A DNA stretch of 64,000 nt from a virus. Taxonomy: Duplodnaviria > Heunggongvirae > Uroviricota > Caudoviricetes. The stretch spans positions 103,062-167,061 of the IMG/VR virus record IMGVR_UViG_3300020576_001727; one strand, 5' to 3'. Below are positions 6,829 through 43,088 of the stretch, piece after piece. The translations under genes were made by a program, and so were the position numbers. The notes below the pieces were generated by a model. It saw nothing but the letters and a program-made list of their open reading frames with translations, had not been told where the DNA came from and did no database searches. Numbering within the stretch: position 1 is the first letter of the stretch; each line of letters begins with the position of its first letter.

Positions 6829-7262
6829 CTTATGCACATGATTATCTGAATGAATTGATTTGGGTGAAGCTGAAGAAGCCGGATGATTTCTTGATTATTA
6901 AGGAAACTCTGACTCGAATTGGAATACCTTCGAAAATGGAGAAGAAATTGACCCAAACTTGTCATATTCTCCACAAGAAAGGAAGATATGCGATTGTTCA
7001 CTTCAAGGAATTGTTCATATTAGATGGAAAACCAACTGATTTTTCCGAAGAAGACAAGGAAAGACGTAATGCTATTGTTGCGTTATTGGAAATGTGGGGA
7101 TTGATCGAAAGAGAAAAGCCTTCGACTGGAAATGGTCCGGAATGGGCAAACAATCCGACGATCAAAATCATTTCGTCCAAGGAAAAATCCGAATGGCAAT
7201 TGATCAGCAAATATACAGTGGGCAACAAAGGAAGATATAATGCCGGTTCCTCCAATTCTTAG
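6825..7262 (+). CDS. regA: RegA translational repressor
   Basis: LKKPDDFLIIKETLTRIGI...CHILHKKGRYAIVHFKE matches T4 RegA; T4 synteny 45-44-62-regA. Confidence 0.8.
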   Translation: MTYAHDYLNELIWVKLKKPDDFLIIKETLTRIGIPSKMEKKLTQTCHILHKKGRYAIVHFKELFILDGKPTDFSEEDKERRNAIVALLEMWGLIEREKPSTGNGPEWANNPTIKIISSKEKSEWQLISKYTVGNKGRYNAGSSNS

Positions 7263-7752
7263 ATTTTTCAAACTGCATCCGAACGTGCAAATTCCAACGC
7301 TGGCAACGGCAGGAAGTGCATGTTTCGACTTGTCCTATTTTCCCCATGTTTCAAAGGTGAAGGGATTCAGCGCGACGAATGCGCCATTCGAGAGAGATAT
7401 CAACGCGGATGGCGGGATTGGTATCATGCAGGGGGAAAGATTGCTTCTGCCAACTGGACTGATCGCGGATATCCCATTGGGTTACTCAATGCGGGTTCAT
7501 CCGCGTTCGGGAACTTCCGTTAAATTGGGATTGACTTTGGCGAATGCGGAAGGTATCATTGACTCAGATTACGTCGAAGAAATTTTCTTGACGGCTCATA
7601 ACACTTCACAAAATCGAATTCTGATCAATCGGGGCGATCGTATTGCCCAAGGAGAATTGTATCAGGATTTGAAAAACATAATTCAGGAAACCTTGACTCG
7701 TCCTGTCCAGAAGACGACCCGCCAAGGTGGTTTTGGTTCTACTGGCGTATGA
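7240..7752 (+). CDS. dut: dUTPase
   Basis: conserved dUTPase motifs (RSG in HPRSGTSV, GIIDSDY, C-terminal GGFGSTG). Confidence 0.7.
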   Translation: MPVPPILRFFKLHPNVQIPTLATAGSACFDLSYFPHVSKVKGFSATNAPFERDINADGGIGIMQGERLLLPTGLIADIPLGYSMRVHPRSGTSVKLGLTLANAEGIIDSDYVEEIFLTAHNTSQNRILINRGDRIAQGELYQDLKNIIQETLTRPVQKTTRQGGFGSTGV

Positions 7753-21316: not shown

Positions 21317-21395
21317 GGGGGATTAGGCTAATTGGTATCGCCGGTAGTTTCAAAAACTACGCCGTTTGAGGGTTCGACTCCCTTGTTCCCTACCA
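21317..21395 (+). tRNA. tRNA, anticodon CAA (Leu-like but short variable arm)
   Basis: hand fold: acceptor gggggat/gttccct with G-U pairs, AC stem gtagt/actac loop ttcaaaa, T-loop ttcgact, CCA encoded. Confidence 0.45.
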
Positions 21396-24105: not shown

Positions 24106-24134
24106 TTGACAAAGATTGAAACATGCACTATATT
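24106..24134 (+). promoter_or_regulatory. promoter TTGACA-N17-TATATT
   Basis: read directly. Confidence 0.5.
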
Positions 24135-25918: not shown

Positions 25919-25994
25919 GTCTGATAAGCTAACTTAGTAGAAGCGCCTGCCTGAAGAGCAGGAGGATACGGGGCGGAACCGTGATCAGACACCA
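25919..25994 (+). tRNA. tRNA-Phe (GAA), noncanonical T-loop
   Basis: acceptor gtctgat/atcagac, AC stem cctgc/gcagg loop ctgaaga, CCA. Confidence 0.5.
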
Positions 25995-29694: not shown

Positions 29695-29775
29695 TGCCTC
29701 TGTATCAGTCCCGGCTTCGAACCGGTCGTTAAAGCTGTAATGGAGTATGGGGGTTCGAATCCCTTCAGGGGCACC
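29695..29775 (+). tRNA. noncanonical tRNA-like, anticodon-like loop UCG (Arg), canonical acceptor/T-arm, apparent D-arm missing/rearranged
   Basis: acceptor gcctctg/caggggc, hairpin ccgg-cttcgaa-ccgg, T-arm gggggttcgaatccctt, CCA; paralog at 29995. Confidence 0.4.
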
Positions 29776-32641: not shown

Positions 32642-33196
32642 TTGTTGACAACATCAAATGTCACATATATAGTAACACAGAATATGAAACTCTGCGAAAC
32701 TTGTCATAATCAACATGATGGTAATTTTGGTTCCGGAAGATTTTGTTGCAAAAAATGCGCTTGTTCATATAGCACCAAAAATTCTAGACATGAGATTAAT
32801 CAGAAGGTCAAAAATGCTTTAATTGGTCGAAAAGCTTCGATTGAAACGATAGACAAGATGAAAGAATCTTGGAAATCGAGAAAATCAAGCAATTCCTATT
32901 ATAGGCGTTCGCAAACGAATATTGAAGATATTTGTGTAGTCGATTCTATCTATACTACTAAATATGTTAAAGAAAGATTATTTCGCGACAATCTAAAAAA
33001 ATATGAATGTGAAGAATGTGGATTATATGAGTGGCGAAATAAGCCAATAACATTACAACTTCATCACAGAAATGGTAAAAATAAAGATCATAGATTAGAA
33101 AATCTGCAAATCTTATGTCCAATGTGTCATTCTCAAACGGACAATTATGCAGGAAGAAATAGAAGGCTTCGTATTTTAACTGGAAAGATGCATTGA
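32642..33196 (+). CDS. HNH homing endonuclease
   Basis: LQLHHRNGKNKDHRLENLQILCPMCH; N-terminal Zn ribbons; own promoter TTGACA-N17-TATAGT upstream. Confidence 0.65.
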   Translation: MLTTSNVTYIVTQNMKLCETCHNQHDGNFGSGRFCCKKCACSYSTKNSRHEINQKVKNALIGRKASIETIDKMKESWKSRKSSNSYYRRSQTNIEDICVVDSIYTTKYVKERLFRDNLKKYECEECGLYEWRNKPITLQLHHRNGKNKDHRLENLQILCPMCHSQTDNYAGRNRRLRILTGKMH

Positions 33197-33241
33197 CTAC
33201 GAATCAATGAGGTAAAGGTTCGAATCCTTTCGAAGTCGCCA
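33195..33241 (+). pseudogene. tRNA 3' fragment / minihelix (acceptor + T-arm + CCA, no D or anticodon arm) abutting HNH stop codon
   Basis: gactacg..aaaggttcgaatccttt cgaagtc g cca. Confidence 0.4.
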
Positions 33242-33244
33242 ATA

Positions 33245-33319
33245 CAGGGTGTAAGAGATAAGATCATCGGTCGGTTTTGGAAACCGGCTAAGCTGGAGCG
33301 TTACCAGCCATCCTGACCA
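33245..33319 (+). tRNA. tRNA-Pro (UGG), weak D-stem, noncanonical T-loop
   Basis: acceptor cagggtg/catcctg, AC stem gtcggt/accggc loop tttggaa, CCA. Confidence 0.45.
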
Positions 33320-33401
33320 ATTCTCTCTTAAGTGTTGGCGCACGAAAGAGAGATAAGCAAAGCCCGAAAAAGCAAATCACGCCAATGATTTGTGAGTAAC
33401 G

Positions 33402-33470
33402 AGTCATATCGTCTAGGGCGGAAGGACGCCCCTGTTGAAGGGGGAAACGTGGGTTCGAATCCCATTATGT
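33402..33470 (+). tRNA. tRNA-like (D-arm cgtc/gacg, T-arm gtgggttcgaatcccat) whose acceptor halves do not pair; possible pseudo-tRNA
   Basis: hand fold. Confidence 0.3.
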
Positions 33471-33862
33471 TTAGCTTTGCTTTAAAATTTCGGATTAAGT
33501 TCCCGTCAACGCACACTAGCGACGTTAACTTTGGGTGCCGTGTTTTGTTGCTTCCTCCCGTTAAGAAAGCAATCCTTTTGATTATTTTCGGCGAAAAATA
33601 ATCGGTCATGCGTGAGTGTCTACAATTCTTACGCCGTATGGTAGCACGGATGCACCATGTCAATGCCAGTCAGACATACCCAAAAATGTGATATAATTGG
33701 AAAAAAATATCAATCTGGCAACCTATTAAATGCTTGATTTGACTATAAAATCAGGTATAATACAGTAAACAGGAACGATGAATCAGATAGTTTTCGTCCT
33801 ATCGTTCAAAGCGTCGTAAAGTCCGCCCGGTCTGTTCAAAACGGTGGCGGGTTAGAATTTAT

Positions 33863-33940
33863 TCCTCAGAGGCGAGCAAGGTGCACGCGGCGGTCTGTTA
33901 AACCGAGTTAAGGCAGGTTCGATTCCTGCTTGGGGAGCCA
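33863..33940 (+). tRNA. tRNA-Asn (GUU), U1-A72
   Basis: acceptor tcctcag/ttgggga with wobbles, AC loop ctgttaa, T-arm gcaggttcgattcctgc, CCA. Confidence 0.45.
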
Positions 33941-34138
33941 AAATAAGTTATTGACAAGCTTGAAGAAATTCGCTAGGATATGTCAATAATAGGAACCGGA
34001 AGTGGGGTATCAAATCCTCGATCCCGCCCAACAAATTCAAGCATGGCCAACGCTATGTGATGATCGGATCGCTACCGACGAATTTGTATTATCGGGATTT
34101 GGTGTAAGAAAGCACGCCGGACGAATTTTTTGAATAAT

Positions 34139-39675: not shown

Positions 39676-39864
39676 ATGCATCTGATCATTGGAGCATATC
39701 TATTCCTTGGCGGAATCTATTCGGCTTGGTCGCTCAAATGGACCAAAAAGAATTTTGAACAGTTCAAGGATTATTTCTGGCATGTGGTTCTCACAACCTT
39801 CCTTTGGCCATTGTTTGCCTTCAAGGATGGTATCTTGAAACTCTATGACATGGTGTTTGGATAA
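39676..39864 (+). CDS. small membrane protein
   Basis: hydrophobic, W-rich. Confidence 0.35.
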   Translation: MHLIIGAYLFLGGIYSAWSLKWTKKNFEQFKDYFWHVVLTTFLWPLFAFKDGILKLYDMVFG

Positions 39865-40256
39865 TGGCATATTGGATTCCGAAAAAAGATTGGGCTGAAT
39901 GGATAGAAACCCACCAAAAAATGTCTGATTTTTTTGGTATTAAAAAACCATTTCGAGAAGCATCGAAAAGCTTAAAAGATATTGTCCTGTTTTTTGAAGA
40001 GAATTCTTTTCAAGATAATAAATTTACAAAACAGACGATTGGTTACAATTGGTTGTATTGGGCGATAGAATCAATTTATGAAATGCTTTCTAAAGAGAAA
40101 GAATCATATGATAAGCTGGTTGATCGACTCGATTCGATGTCTGGATGGCTGAATTCCAAGGAAAATCAACAGGTTTTGGAAGCCAAGGTAAAGAGTCTGG
40201 AATCCACGGTCGAACGTCTCGAAAAAAAGTTGGCACAATTCGAAAAAAGCGATTGA
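39864..40256 (+). CDS. hypothetical protein with C-terminal coiled coil
   Basis: ORF track. Confidence 0.4.
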   Translation: MAYWIPKKDWAEWIETHQKMSDFFGIKKPFREASKSLKDIVLFFEENSFQDNKFTKQTIGYNWLYWAIESIYEMLSKEKESYDKLVDRLDSMSGWLNSKENQQVLEAKVKSLESTVERLEKKLAQFEKSD

Positions 40257-40348
40257 CTTGGGAACCGAAACGTCCTATATTAAGTTTGTAAGCAGGAAAG
40301 AGAAAACAGCGGAGACAAAAAAAATGTAACCGAACCTCAAAAAAACTC

Positions 40349-40377
40349 TTGACAAAGAGAGATAGATAGAGTAGAAT
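40349..40377 (+). promoter_or_regulatory. promoter TTGACA-N17-TAGAAT facing ORF-free region
   Basis: read directly. Confidence 0.5.
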
Positions 40378-41167
40378 TTAAAAATAGAAACGATCTAGAC
40401 AAGAGAGTAAAGCAATGGCTAGAGACTCGCCCTAGAAAGTAACTTAAAGCCTCAAAGAGGCAACTTAGATAGAGATATTAGATATAGTATGTTAAAATGA
40501 AACTTGGTTTACCGATGGAGCGAAGTTGGGCAATGTCAATAAGTCCCGCCAGCATAGAAGTCGGACCAACGAGAGAAGAACGTTAACTCGCTAAATCAAC
40601 GTGACAGTCCGGAGAGACGGACACTTTAATTCAATGAAAACAAGAACAGTCCTGTCCTGAAAATAGCTCTAAGACATGATAATATTGGATATCTGCTTGT
40701 TTTCATTTAATTAAAGATTGGCGTGTATGGCGTCGTCAGAATAAGGTTGGCAACAACCCCAACGGGAAAAATCTCACGATATCCCACCTAGCAATAGGGT
40801 CAACCATGCAAGCCTCCCCGGTCTGGTAACAGATGTTTCGCTGATAAGAGCGGCGGAACGAACGAGGAAGCCGATGTAGTGGAAAGAACCTTCGTTTAAG
40901 CGCCCGCAAGGGAAACGCAAGCGAAGGGAAAGTAACGGGTGGTGCCGACTTCACTACAAAACCAATCGGTCATTCGGGACGGGAAAGGGTAGGGTATTTG
41001 TCCGAGTCTTACAAACAAGGGCTTATATCCAGTCTGATAGGTCGGTGGTAACGAAACGCTGGTCTTGAAAGACCGCTAAGTAGTCGGTAGACAAAAGGCA
41101 TGAAGGCGTGTTGTATTTTGGTTCCCAAAAGGAATTGAAGCAACAGGGGCAGCACGTCTCGGTGAGT

Positions 41168-41237
41168 TAGCAAGTAGCTCAATGGTAGGGCAATCGCATT
41201 TGAAGCGATGACTGTTGGTTCAATTCCAACCTTCATA
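41168..41237 (+). tRNA. tRNA-like element (UUG anticodon arm atcgc-atttgaa-gcgat, T-arm gttggttcaattccaac) without pairing acceptor
   Basis: hand fold. Confidence 0.3.
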
Positions 41238-41572
41238 TAAAAAAGCAAAGACTGTCCCAGTTGATGGTGAAAATGGTTTAATACTACACTCGAAAGAGAA
41301 TGTAGTTACAAAAAGTCCGCAAGACAATTTGTATTTGTTTTAGAAATTTCGTAACAACTTAGCGGTTGTGAATGGTTCGCAAGATCAGCGGGAAAGAAGA
41401 AACAGAGTAGCTATCAGCGATACGAGAAACGCGACTCGTCAAACGCAACCATGATGTTGTAGAAAGATACCGAAAGGATTTTTCTGGATATGGAAGGAAA
41501 GCAGTCCGCAAAACTGCCATAATCTTCTTAAAGCAGCATTGGTAAACGTGTAATCTCAACGTTTTACAATAG

Positions 41573-41590
41573 CCCTTCGGGGCTATTTTC
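41573..41590 (+). promoter_or_regulatory. UUCG-tetraloop hairpin atagccc-ttcg-gggctat just upstream of HNH-like ORF start
   Basis: read directly. Confidence 0.4.
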
Positions 41591-41605
41591 ATTTATGGGC
41601 TAGTT

Positions 41606-42211
41606 ATGACAAGAACACAAACAGAACGCAAAATTTCGTCTCTACTTAAAAACGTTAATACATTACAAGGACTCAAAGTTTGTCTTAGTAAATGTGATCA
41701 GCAGATACATAATCTCTCCATAATGAGAAAAAATTTAACTAAAAAACACGCTAAAGAAAAGAATTCTATTAGACGTGAAATGAAATTCTGGTATCTGTTT
41801 AGAAACAGAATTTATCTAACATCTGAAATGTGGGTTAATGATGCTCTAGACGAGCAGTTATATCAGATAATTCCAGAGCATGAACGAACGTCTATAACAA
41901 AATACAGATATCTCGCGCGCTTTCGGCTAAATGCTGTTGAGTTGAATCGTGTCATTGGTTATGATAAACTAGTAAAATATGGATGGTATTCCTCCACAAA
42001 CCCAACGGGTGTAGTTAAAGATCATCGTCTTTCAATAAAATTTGGATTTGAAAATAAAATTGATCCAAAGATATTATCGCATCCTTGTAATTGTGAATTT
42101 TTGACGTTCAAAGAAAATGGATTGAAAAGTGATAATTGTTCAATAGGACTAATTTTACTTCAAGAATCTATAGAAAATTGGAAAATCGATGCATCTACCA
42201 AAAGAAGCTAG
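41606..42211 (+). CDS. putative HNH-like endonuclease
   Basis: VVKDHRLSIKFGFEN...HPCNCEFL..EN. Confidence 0.35.
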   Translation: MTRTQTERKISSLLKNVNTLQGLKVCLSKCDQQIHNLSIMRKNLTKKHAKEKNSIRREMKFWYLFRNRIYLTSEMWVNDALDEQLYQIIPEHERTSITKYRYLARFRLNAVELNRVIGYDKLVKYGWYSSTNPTGVVKDHRLSIKFGFENKIDPKILSHPCNCEFLTFKENGLKSDNCSIGLILLQESIENWKIDASTKRS

Positions 42212-42515
42212 ACGAATTCTAGACCGTTATAGACGGCGCGAAAGAAAGCATCGAATTGGTTGTCGCGGTAAAGTTCGTAACGGTTCGACTGGTTTGATAG
42301 ATGATCTGTTACTGGAAAATATGATTCGGAATTCGAAGAAAAGATATGCAAGGAAAGGAAAACTTAGTGTTTATCAAAGACTTATATGAAATGTATGATC
42401 GATGGCAGAGAGAACGAAACACGATTAGAGAACTGTCCAGATTGACAGACAGAGAATTGTCGGATTTGGGTATCAATCGAGGAAGCATCCGCCATGTAGC
42501 AAGAAAGGTTTACAA

Positions 42516-43088
42516 ATGATTTTTTCACGTAATGAATTGGTTGAATTGTCCAAGGAAGTTGCAATTGTTAATGAAAAATGGAATATCGATCCCGTCACTG
42601 GACTGAAGAAAGAACCTGTAATGGGTAGATGTCTTATGTTGATTGTTTCCGAACTTTCGGAGGCATTAGAAGGCATTCGAAAAGATTTATGGGATACACA
42701 TTTACCCCATAGAAAAATGGAAGAAGTTGAAATGGCGGATGCATTGATTCGTCTTCTTGATTTTGTAAATCGTTTTGATATCGATATTCTCGCAGACATA
42801 AAAGAAATTCCTTCTGATATATTTGAGAATAATCCATTCTCTAGTAATACTAAAGAAGAAAATTTATTTGAAATTGTTGGTGAATTGAGTAATTTAAATC
42901 CATATCAGATGGATGATGAATGGTGGATGAATACTAATACTATTTACGCGATTACCAGCGTTTTACAATATTGTCGTGATTGGAATCTCGATCTTCGCGG
43001 TGCTGTTCGCGAAAAGATGGAATACAACAAAAATCGCGAAGATCACAAAATCGAATCTCGTTTGGCAGAGAACGGAAAAAAGTGGTGA
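42516..43088 (+). CDS. MazG-like nucleotide pyrophosphohydrolase
   Basis: EExxE-type motifs VSELSEALEGIRK, EMADALIRLLD. Confidence 0.55.
   Translation: MIFSRNELVELSKEVAIVNEKWNIDPVTGLKKEPVMGRCLMLIVSELSEALEGIRKDLWDTHLPHRKMEEVEMADALIRLLDFVNRFDIDILADIKEIPSDIFENNPFSSNTKEENLFEIVGELSNLNPYQMDDEWWMNTNTIYAITSVLQYCRDWNLDLRGAVREKMEYNKNREDHKIESRLAENGKKW

Follow-up and report, generated by a model that had tools for sequence, protein, structure and literature searches.

A gene-free interval beside a phage tRNA island

We analyzed a 64,000-nucleotide (nt) stretch of DNA from a virus of the class Caudoviricetes (hereafter, the window), corresponding to positions 103,062 to 167,061 of the IMG/VR record IMGVR_UViG_3300020576_001727, and focused on a 1.3-kb interval without credible genes (40260–41605), which very probably encodes an RNA of the GOLLD family. 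By its sequence, the window is part of the genome of a T4-like myovirus; it encodes a family-B DNA polymerase with 44% identity to cyanomyophage gp43, along with other T4-like replication genes, including those for a DnaB-like helicase and a RecA/UvsX-like protein. Identical sequence is present in 2 Sequence Read Archive assemblies (SRR32380198 and SRR18715499), and searches of GenBank phages and IMG/VR recovered no identical sequence. ARAGORN predicts 30 transfer RNA (tRNA) genes between positions 21317 and 38785, including 2 for tRNA-Gln(UUG) and 1 for tRNA-Gln(CUG), all on the plus strand, which also carries GOLLD.

The interval is bounded upstream by an open reading frame (ORF; 39864–40256) with its own stop codon at 40254–40256 and downstream by a plus-strand ORF of 201 amino acids (aa; 41606–42211; hereafter, ORF201), and our IMG/VR search found no relatives of either. 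An exact-protein look-up of the upstream ORF returned only the identical copies of the same phage in SRR32380198 and SRR18715499 and hence no informative variation. Inside the interval, the longest ORF on the plus strand has 42 aa and the longest on the minus strand have 79, 77, and 72 aa (41009–41248, 41359–41592, and 40736–40954, respectively); none of the interval ORFs matched a PHROG family. A preliminary description of the window had depicted this region as purine-rich and without long ORFs, and both statements hold: about 1.2 kb past the promoter described below contains no credible ORF, and purines make up 59.1% of the interval (62.8% of 40260–40700) vs 52.6% of the window.

A complete GOLLD RNA with a second type of 5′ domain

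The Rfam scan, which the preliminary description had suggested, matched 2 families in the interval and nothing else even at E ≤ 1. The first is GOLLD (RF02032): positions 41103–41562 of the plus strand match the model from position 1 to 416 of 416, without truncation, and score 214.6 bits (gathering score, 150; E = 1.6e-60). The second is a tRNA at 41168–41238. ROOL, another large phage RNA, had no match in the window. The earlier proposal of a stable, structured noncoding RNA beside the tRNA cluster was therefore correct in kind, although the family had not been named.

The RF02032 model describes only the universally conserved 3′ half of GOLLD, and the remainder of the gene was delimited by comparison. 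A pattern scan based on the 3′ domain retrieved 120 GOLLD loci, of which only 2 (L213 and L190) resembled the window upstream of that domain (E ~1e-24). A pattern conserved in these 2 loci and the window retrieved 44 IMG/VR loci, 39 of them non-redundant, and all 44 match positions 40718–41102 end to end (nhmmer, E 1e-74 to 1e-117). We refer to these 385 nt on the plus strand, in which the first hairpin, P1, occupies positions 40720–40734, as the 5′ domain. The consensus fold obtained with RNAalifold from an alignment of 40 sequences (the window and its 39 non-redundant IMG/VR relatives) contains 99 pairs in 20 helices, and compensatory changes are seen in 67 of the pairs. In this alignment, 98.7% of the cells are paired, compared with 34% to 41% when the partners are slid, and none of 500 shuffles reached the observed measures; the window itself keeps 91 of the 99 pairs. 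In each of 15 sampled relatives, an Rfam GOLLD match of 180 to 230 bits lies 1 to 2 nt past the 5′ domain, and the gene is embedded in a dense tRNA array. Given a 5′ domain that is homologous end to end and covarying, followed by the 3′ Rfam match, the window carries a complete GOLLD gene of approximately 845 nt (~40718–41562, plus strand).

The window copy is new to the family yet typical of it, and it sits in the textbook setting, the tRNA island of a T4-like phage; it displays the 3′ model match, the structured 5′ domain upstream, the variable linker, and the location in a phage tRNA array that characterize RF02032. Another family trait is a discrete RNA whose level rises during phage lytic growth, to which the window contributes a predicted promoter and terminator only. 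In kind, the copy adds nothing new; it provides a clean example from a T4-like phage with its own predicted promoter and terminator, and what goes beyond routine annotation are its orphan leader, the obligatory tRNA mimic, whose anticodon drifts, and a nuclease-like ORF linked to GOLLD.

The 5′ domain of the window is judged to be of a subtype different from that of env-38, a GOLLD construct solved by cryogenic electron microscopy (cryo-EM), and the comparison set yields a covariation-supported model of a second 5′-domain subtype with 40 members. A hidden Markov model (HMM) of the window-type 5′ domain did not match env-38. A 13-mer, ACGGGTGGTGCCG, is common to the window (position 40935) and env-38, and a search with it retrieved 13 IMG/VR loci of the env-38 type; as proof of homology of the whole domain it was rejected, the HMM of env-38-type 5′ domains giving no significant match to the window (E = 1.5). 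Both types contain the hairpin CGG-GUGGUG-CCG (40936–40947, plus strand), the 6-nt loop of which is invariant in the 40-sequence alignment and which recurs in the otherwise unalignable env-38-type 5′ domain. The loop may serve as a tertiary or kissing contact.

The window-type HMM also partly matches the GOLLD 5′ regions of Caulobacter phage phiCbK (JX163858), Mesorhizobium phage Cp1R7A-A1 (MT188704), and Sinorhizobium phage Phosso (PV764938), the nearest named phages by DNA. The first ~95 nt and the last ~130 nt of the domain are homologous in these phages (E 3e-7 to 1e-5), whereas the middle is unalignable, and neither their hosts nor their phage types resemble those of the T4-like phage. 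A BLAST search of the region against GenBank phages gave only 2 short matches, in the P13/linker part (41105–41323). The 3′ domain nearest to that of the window (nhmmer, E 5e-62) belongs to L344, a locus from a relative of Phosso with a promoter region resembling that of Phosso, whereas the 5′ region of L344 (3445–4488) has no detectable similarity to positions 40718–41102 of the window. This mismatch suggests that the 5′ and 3′ halves of GOLLD have been exchanged between lineages, and it is in line with published work in which the 2 domains of GOLLD are seen as independent in folding and evolution.

Predicted transcription and assembly of the RNA

A near-consensus sigma70 promoter, TTGACA-N17-TAGAAT (11 of 12 positions; 40349–40377, plus strand), stands exactly where the preliminary description had placed it, with the −35 box at 40349–40354, a 17-nt spacer, and the −10 box at 40372–40377; it is preceded by an A-rich tract, and its predicted start lies near 40384. 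Throughout the window, TTGACA-N17-TATAAT with at most 1 mismatch occurs 9 times, always on the plus strand (−35 starts at 24106, 26758, 27555, 29865, 32645, 37031, 40349, 56306, and 59879), compared with 0.56 sites expected by chance, so the promoter at 40349 is unlikely to be a chance occurrence. A weaker sigma70-like match to the consensus, TTGACT-N17-TATATT (10 of 12; 40253–40281, plus strand), overlaps the stop codon of the upstream ORF. At the other end, 6 nt past the GOLLD 3′ end, the UUCG-tetraloop hairpin that had been described as closing the region just ahead of the next ORF is present, and its 8-bp stem and loop (41568–41587) together with a T-rich tail form a predicted intrinsic terminator (41568–41597, plus strand). 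Hairpins of different sequence occupy the corresponding position, between GOLLD and the following ORF, in 3 other loci (L344, L348, and L346).

Seven of the 9 near-consensus promoters lie inside the tRNA/GOLLD region, and the tRNA island appears to be split into several transcription units served by the host polymerase.

Between the promoter and GOLLD lies a purine-rich leader of 333 nt (40385–40717, plus strand). It contains a small hairpin (40608–40621) and a 93-nt AU-rich hairpin of ~34 bp (40624–40716) that ends 3 nt before P1; its predicted fold (−77.3 kcal/mol) has a z score of −2.9 relative to shuffled sequences, an excess mainly due to the AU-rich hairpin. No homologue of the leader was found with nhmmer in any fetched locus, no Rfam family matched it, even in a focused permissive scan, and it is not repeated elsewhere in the window. 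One 10-mer, TTTTCATTTA, is shared by the leader hairpin and the terminator tail, which is compatible with chance. The leader ends within an A/T box, TTAAAGATT (40711–40719, plus strand), which in a visual alignment anchored on the AGAATAA motif corresponds to a TAAGAATTT / TAAAGATTT box that nearly all members of the subfamily have immediately 5′ of their first hairpin. The box is kept whether a sigma70 promoter, a tRNA, or the long hairpin precedes it and might function as a promoter element, as a processing signal, or as a segment of the RNA itself. Its reading as a late promoter of the T4 type (TATAAATA-like) was also considered; the window version, TTAAAGATT, does not fit.

We propose that transcription from the promoter at 40349 and termination at the UUCG hairpin would yield a primary transcript of ~1.2 kb, the leader of which would be kept as an appendage or cleaved off; the 34-bp AU-rich hairpin abutting P1, which has the look of an RNase III-type substrate, is a possible site of such cleavage. 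Processing of this transcript, or an unrecognized proximal start, would account for the mature 5′ end. GOLLD RNAs exceed 800 nt, consist of a variable 5′ and a conserved 3′ domain, and occur close to tRNA islands in phage and prophage genomes; the disordered linker faces inward and sometimes holds tRNAs, and the RNA forms 14-mer and 12-mer cages (PMC12286853; PMC12990946). Structures are available for env-38, a 14-mer with D7 symmetry (PDB 9MEE), and the Streptococcus agalactiae RNA, a 12-mer (PDB 9L0R; codes as given in PMC12990946). With these 2 RNAs the window copy shares the full 3′-domain match, a length above 800 nt, the 2-domain organization, the variable linker after P13, and the phage tRNA-island context, and with env-38 also the CGG-GUGGUG-CCG loop motif. 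By homology with both, the mature RNA would most likely build a closed nanocage on its own, without protein, as a dihedral homo-oligomer; the 5′ domains would form the caps and the 3′ domains the rings, with the linker pointing inward. GOLLD is among the largest noncoding RNAs of bacteria and phages, and its RNA-only nanocages were visualized by cryo-EM in 2025.

A GOLLD RNA, cage by homology included, is the best explanation of the gene-free 1.3 kb as a whole, and we assign it a probability of approximately 0.9. Several observations weigh against it in part. The promoter, the terminator, and the transcript ends are consensus predictions, and a gap of 333 nt, the leader, for which the model does not account, separates the strong promoter from the conserved 5′ end. 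In at least 11 relatives, by comparison, a near-consensus sigma70 promoter has its −10 box ending 49 to 54 nt ahead of AGAATAA, immediately upstream of the first hairpin, and in 2 relatives that carry the downstream ORF the promoter lies 425 to 493 nt before the 3′ domain, vs 726 nt here. The 5′ domain cannot be aligned with that of env-38 at the sequence level, and with a subtype so unlike the solved one, the oligomer number and the cap contacts are not transferable; the published inter-subunit bridges (L20-J13/15, L21a, and L21b) could not be mapped onto the window sequence. The window locus also differs from the solved RNAs in the 333-nt leader between promoter and RNA. In many other relatives, GOLLD follows a tRNA at a distance of 26 to 120 nt.

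The promoter geometry admits a second arrangement, with 2 transcription units: the promoter at 40349 would drive a small leader RNA, ending at about 40620 (~40385–40620) or extending through the long hairpin, and GOLLD would be transcribed from an unrecognized weak or phage-specific promoter near the A/T box (40680–40719). The −10 boxes placed just upstream of the first hairpin in the relatives mentioned above speak for it, as do the retention of the A/T box in the window, the structured nature of the leader (z = −2.9), and a weak CTGAAA-N17-(TG)TAATAT seen by eye at 40657–40685, which with 8 of 12 matches falls under the scan threshold. However, positions 40378–40717 contain no promoter with at least 9 of 12 matches other than a poor TAGAGA-N17-TAAAAT at 40470, no T-run terminator separates the promoter from GOLLD, the tail of the 40607–40622 hairpin is weak, and the leader is conserved nowhere. 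On balance, we consider 2 units the less likely arrangement, with a probability of perhaps a quarter, and favor the single ~1.2-kb transcript.

A tRNA-like module in the linker

The second Rfam match in the interval is a 71-nt module with the anticodon UUG (41168–41238, plus strand), which ARAGORN predicts as tRNA-Gln and Rfam scores as a tRNA at 49.2 bits. It had been noted earlier as a tRNA-like fragment; the likeness to tRNA stands, but the element is a complete cloverleaf rather than a fragment. The module falls within the long insertion between the first stem of RF02032 and the conserved AAAGCAAAG segment and occupies the J13/15 linker, which in env-38 is a disordered loop of 42 nt. A homologous cloverleaf of ~72 nt fills the linker in all 40 subfamily members, and the window module is closer to the nearest of these modules (70% to 75% identity) than to the tRNA-Gln genes of the same window (58% to 62%).

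The linkers of the window and the 39 IMG/VR loci were aligned, and covariation was assessed among 35 distinct orthologues. Pairing in the D, anticodon, and T arms and in the inner acceptor stem is preserved through covariation (97.1% paired; compensatory changes in 16 of 18 pairs), compared with 33% to 48% in slid controls. The anticodon, on the other hand, is free to change: GTT is found in 24 modules, TTT in 7, and TCT in 2, the 7 others comprising single TTA, TAT, ATG, and TTG (the window) anticodons plus irregular 8-nt loops. In the window, only 5 of the 7 acceptor pairs are formed (the mismatches are G.A and C.C), and the acceptor stem is weak or G.U-rich in many orthologues; CCA is not encoded, and an A-run follows the module. 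Of the properties expected of a decoding tRNA, the module thus has the cloverleaf with conserved nucleotides and lacks the 7-bp acceptor stem and the conserved anticodon. In view of the covarying arms, the drifting anticodon, and the often weak acceptor stem, a structural, tRNA-like domain appears to be a better fit than a decoding tRNA, and the comparison set reveals the linker tRNA as an integral, structure-constrained module. This interpretation agrees, by analogy, with the Mycobacterium GOLLD, in which no separate RNA corresponding to the embedded “pseudo tRNA” was detected (PMC6582537). The GOLLD of L346 (4551–4948), which is linked to an ORF of the ORF201 family, has a short linker without the module and a 3′ domain scoring 169 bits, indicating that loss of the module is compatible with retention of the remaining 3′ domain.

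Alternatively, RNase P and RNase Z might excise the cloverleaf, which would then serve as tRNA-Gln(UUG); on this view GOLLD would chiefly be a precursor or delivery vehicle of a working tRNA, its scaffold or timed-release store. The module does retain all the nucleotides of the tRNA tertiary fold (U8, G18G19, U33, and GTTC), and “inhibited storage” of embedded tRNAs has been proposed (PMC12990946). Release of a functional tRNA is nevertheless improbable given the defective acceptor stem, the A-run in place of an encoded CCA, the unconserved anticodon, the undetected “pseudo tRNA” of Mycobacterium, and the presence of 2 tRNA-Gln(UUG) genes and 1 tRNA-Gln(CUG) gene in the same phage.

For the structural module, the cage model has the consequence that 12 to 14 covalently tethered tRNA-like domains would be held in each cage; by analogy with the solved RNAs, cage formation with the module inside is the most likely outcome. 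Given its place in a tRNA island and the tRNA mimic it contains, the RNA may have a role in translation or tRNA metabolism during lytic growth. Host anticodon nucleases are known to target, among others, the tRNAs for Asn, Lys, Arg, Gln, and His. One could imagine, as a long shot to which we give very little credence, that the cloverleaf of the subfamily is an obligatory, vertically inherited, non-decoding tRNA mimic, displayed in 12 to 14 copies inside the RNA cage, where it would act, protected, as a decoy or sink for factors that recognize tRNAs, such as these nucleases, and that the tightly linked HNH-like ORF spreads GOLLD, the two together making up a mobile anti-defence cassette.

A possible nuclease gene travelling with GOLLD

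ORF201 consists of an N-terminal helical hairpin and a C-terminal domain with an invariant DH...N...N motif. It matches PHROG families 23051 and 5104, both without assigned function, and had no match in Pfam, NCBIfam, PDB-sequence, or profile searches. The preliminary description had called it HNH-like. A fold search with a model of the C-terminal domain returned weak structural similarity to HNH nucleases (when the whole protein was modelled, matches to the helical hairpin dominated the results), and no HNH sequence family was matched. Assignment as an HNH or His-Me nuclease, which draws on the predicted structure, is plausible but unproven.

Homologues of ORF201 share 34% to 60% identity. 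In 4 of the 5 lineages with genomic context, the homologue starts 24 to 53 nt after the GOLLD 3′ domain (combined loci L344, 4489–5591; L348, 1156–2261; L346, 4551–5621; and L349, 1778–2790), and in the fifth it is part of a tRNA array, immediately behind the gene for tRNA-Ala. No homologues of the other neighbors in the window were found around the 4 combined loci; with flanking genes unrelated across lineages, GOLLD and ORF201 behave as a portable 2-gene unit. The ORF is rare among the 39 IMG/VR subfamily loci, with only a distant relative ~450 nt downstream of GOLLD in L299, and is therefore not an obligatory partner of GOLLD. The comparison set thus uncovers a protein gene, possibly for a nuclease, travelling with GOLLD, and on the simplest reading ORF201 would be a free-standing, homing-type nuclease hitch-hiking with a conserved GOLLD gene.

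T4-like phages commonly carry group I introns that contain endonuclease ORFs, and in the window an endonuclease-like ORF lies directly 3′ of a highly structured RNA. The preliminary description had considered a group I intron-like RNA carrying the HNH ORF and had suggested a search for split exon halves on either side; a group I or other self-splicing intron would interrupt a host gene and encode ORF201 as its homing endonuclease. We give this scenario almost no chance. No intron family was matched at E ≤ 1 between 39000 and 43000 or at the gathering score in the whole window (RF00028 included), although Rfam recognized a group I intron elsewhere, in the unrelated locus L025, and the RNA matches GOLLD across the full model. 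Exon halves are not apparent: the upstream ORF ends at its own stop codon (40254–40256), and ORF201 has its own start, outside the RNA and past the terminator. The unit of GOLLD and ORF recurs in 4 other lineages amid flanks unrelated to those of the window, and in such unrelated neighborhoods no host gene is interrupted. A coding origin of the region, as decayed or rapidly changing protein-coding sequence (a pseudogene or small minus-strand genes), for which the 3 minus-strand ORFs of 72 to 79 aa could be adduced, is likewise virtually dismissed, as none of these ORFs matched a PHROG family, the substitutions in the 40 homologues are compensatory in helices rather than codon-like, and the covariance model is matched over its full length.

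Related RNAs and neighboring features

In Mycobacterium, GOLLD resides in a cluster of 32 tRNA genes, contains the “pseudo tRNA” that is not separately expressed, and shares the cluster with an HNH endonuclease gene (PMC6582537). As described, the Mycobacterium tRNA-array GOLLDs (M. aubagnense and others) resemble the window locus in all 3 respects, the ~32-tRNA cluster, the internal pseudo-tRNA, and the HNH gene (an HNH-like ORF in the window), and differ in their location on a bacterial chromosome, in a horizontally acquired island, and in the tRNA-Phe-like character of the embedded tRNA (PMC6582537; Morgado 2020, as cited in PMC12990946). ROOL, likewise large, ornate, and encoded by phages close to tRNA islands, assembles into cages made of RNA alone, with a disordered, inward-facing linker (PMC12286853), whereas its sequence and fold are unrelated.

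T4 encodes 2 stable noncoding RNAs beside its tRNA genes, species 1 and 2, which are ~120 to 140 nt long and processed from a tRNA precursor. This analogy, drawn in the preliminary description, applies to the place beside the tRNA genes; the T4 RNAs are smaller, and homology is not expected.

In the 3 nearest named phages, the GOLLD locus is either blank or has the embedded tRNA alone annotated (MT188704, 38276–38347; JX163858, 105107–105179; PV764938, ~33000–34050). The tRNA-Leu and tRNA-Gly annotated at the linker position in Cp1R7A-A1 and phiCbK, respectively, are probably GOLLD linker modules.

Downstream of ORF201, the window encodes a 57-aa DUF1127 protein (42346–42519; Pfam, E 6.5e-12) and a MazG-like pyrophosphatase (42516–43088; PHROG 5658, E 1.8e-41). 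A metagenome scan with the latter returned 26 loci, none of which contained GOLLD or the leader. Within the tRNA array, 3 sites (25919–25991, 29696–29773, and 33402–33473) may represent degenerate or unusual tRNAs: 2 are Rfam tRNA matches (36.9 and 29.3 bits) missed by ARAGORN, and 1 is an ARAGORN tRNA with an undetermined, 2-nt “anticodon.” In 7 marine contigs with GOLLD of the env-38 type (L108, L106, L092, L052, L057, L078, and L025), a tmRNA gene lies ~0.3 to 1.1 kb from GOLLD on the opposite strand, and in L025 the group I intron match (7035–7258) overlaps the tmRNA match (7231–7637).

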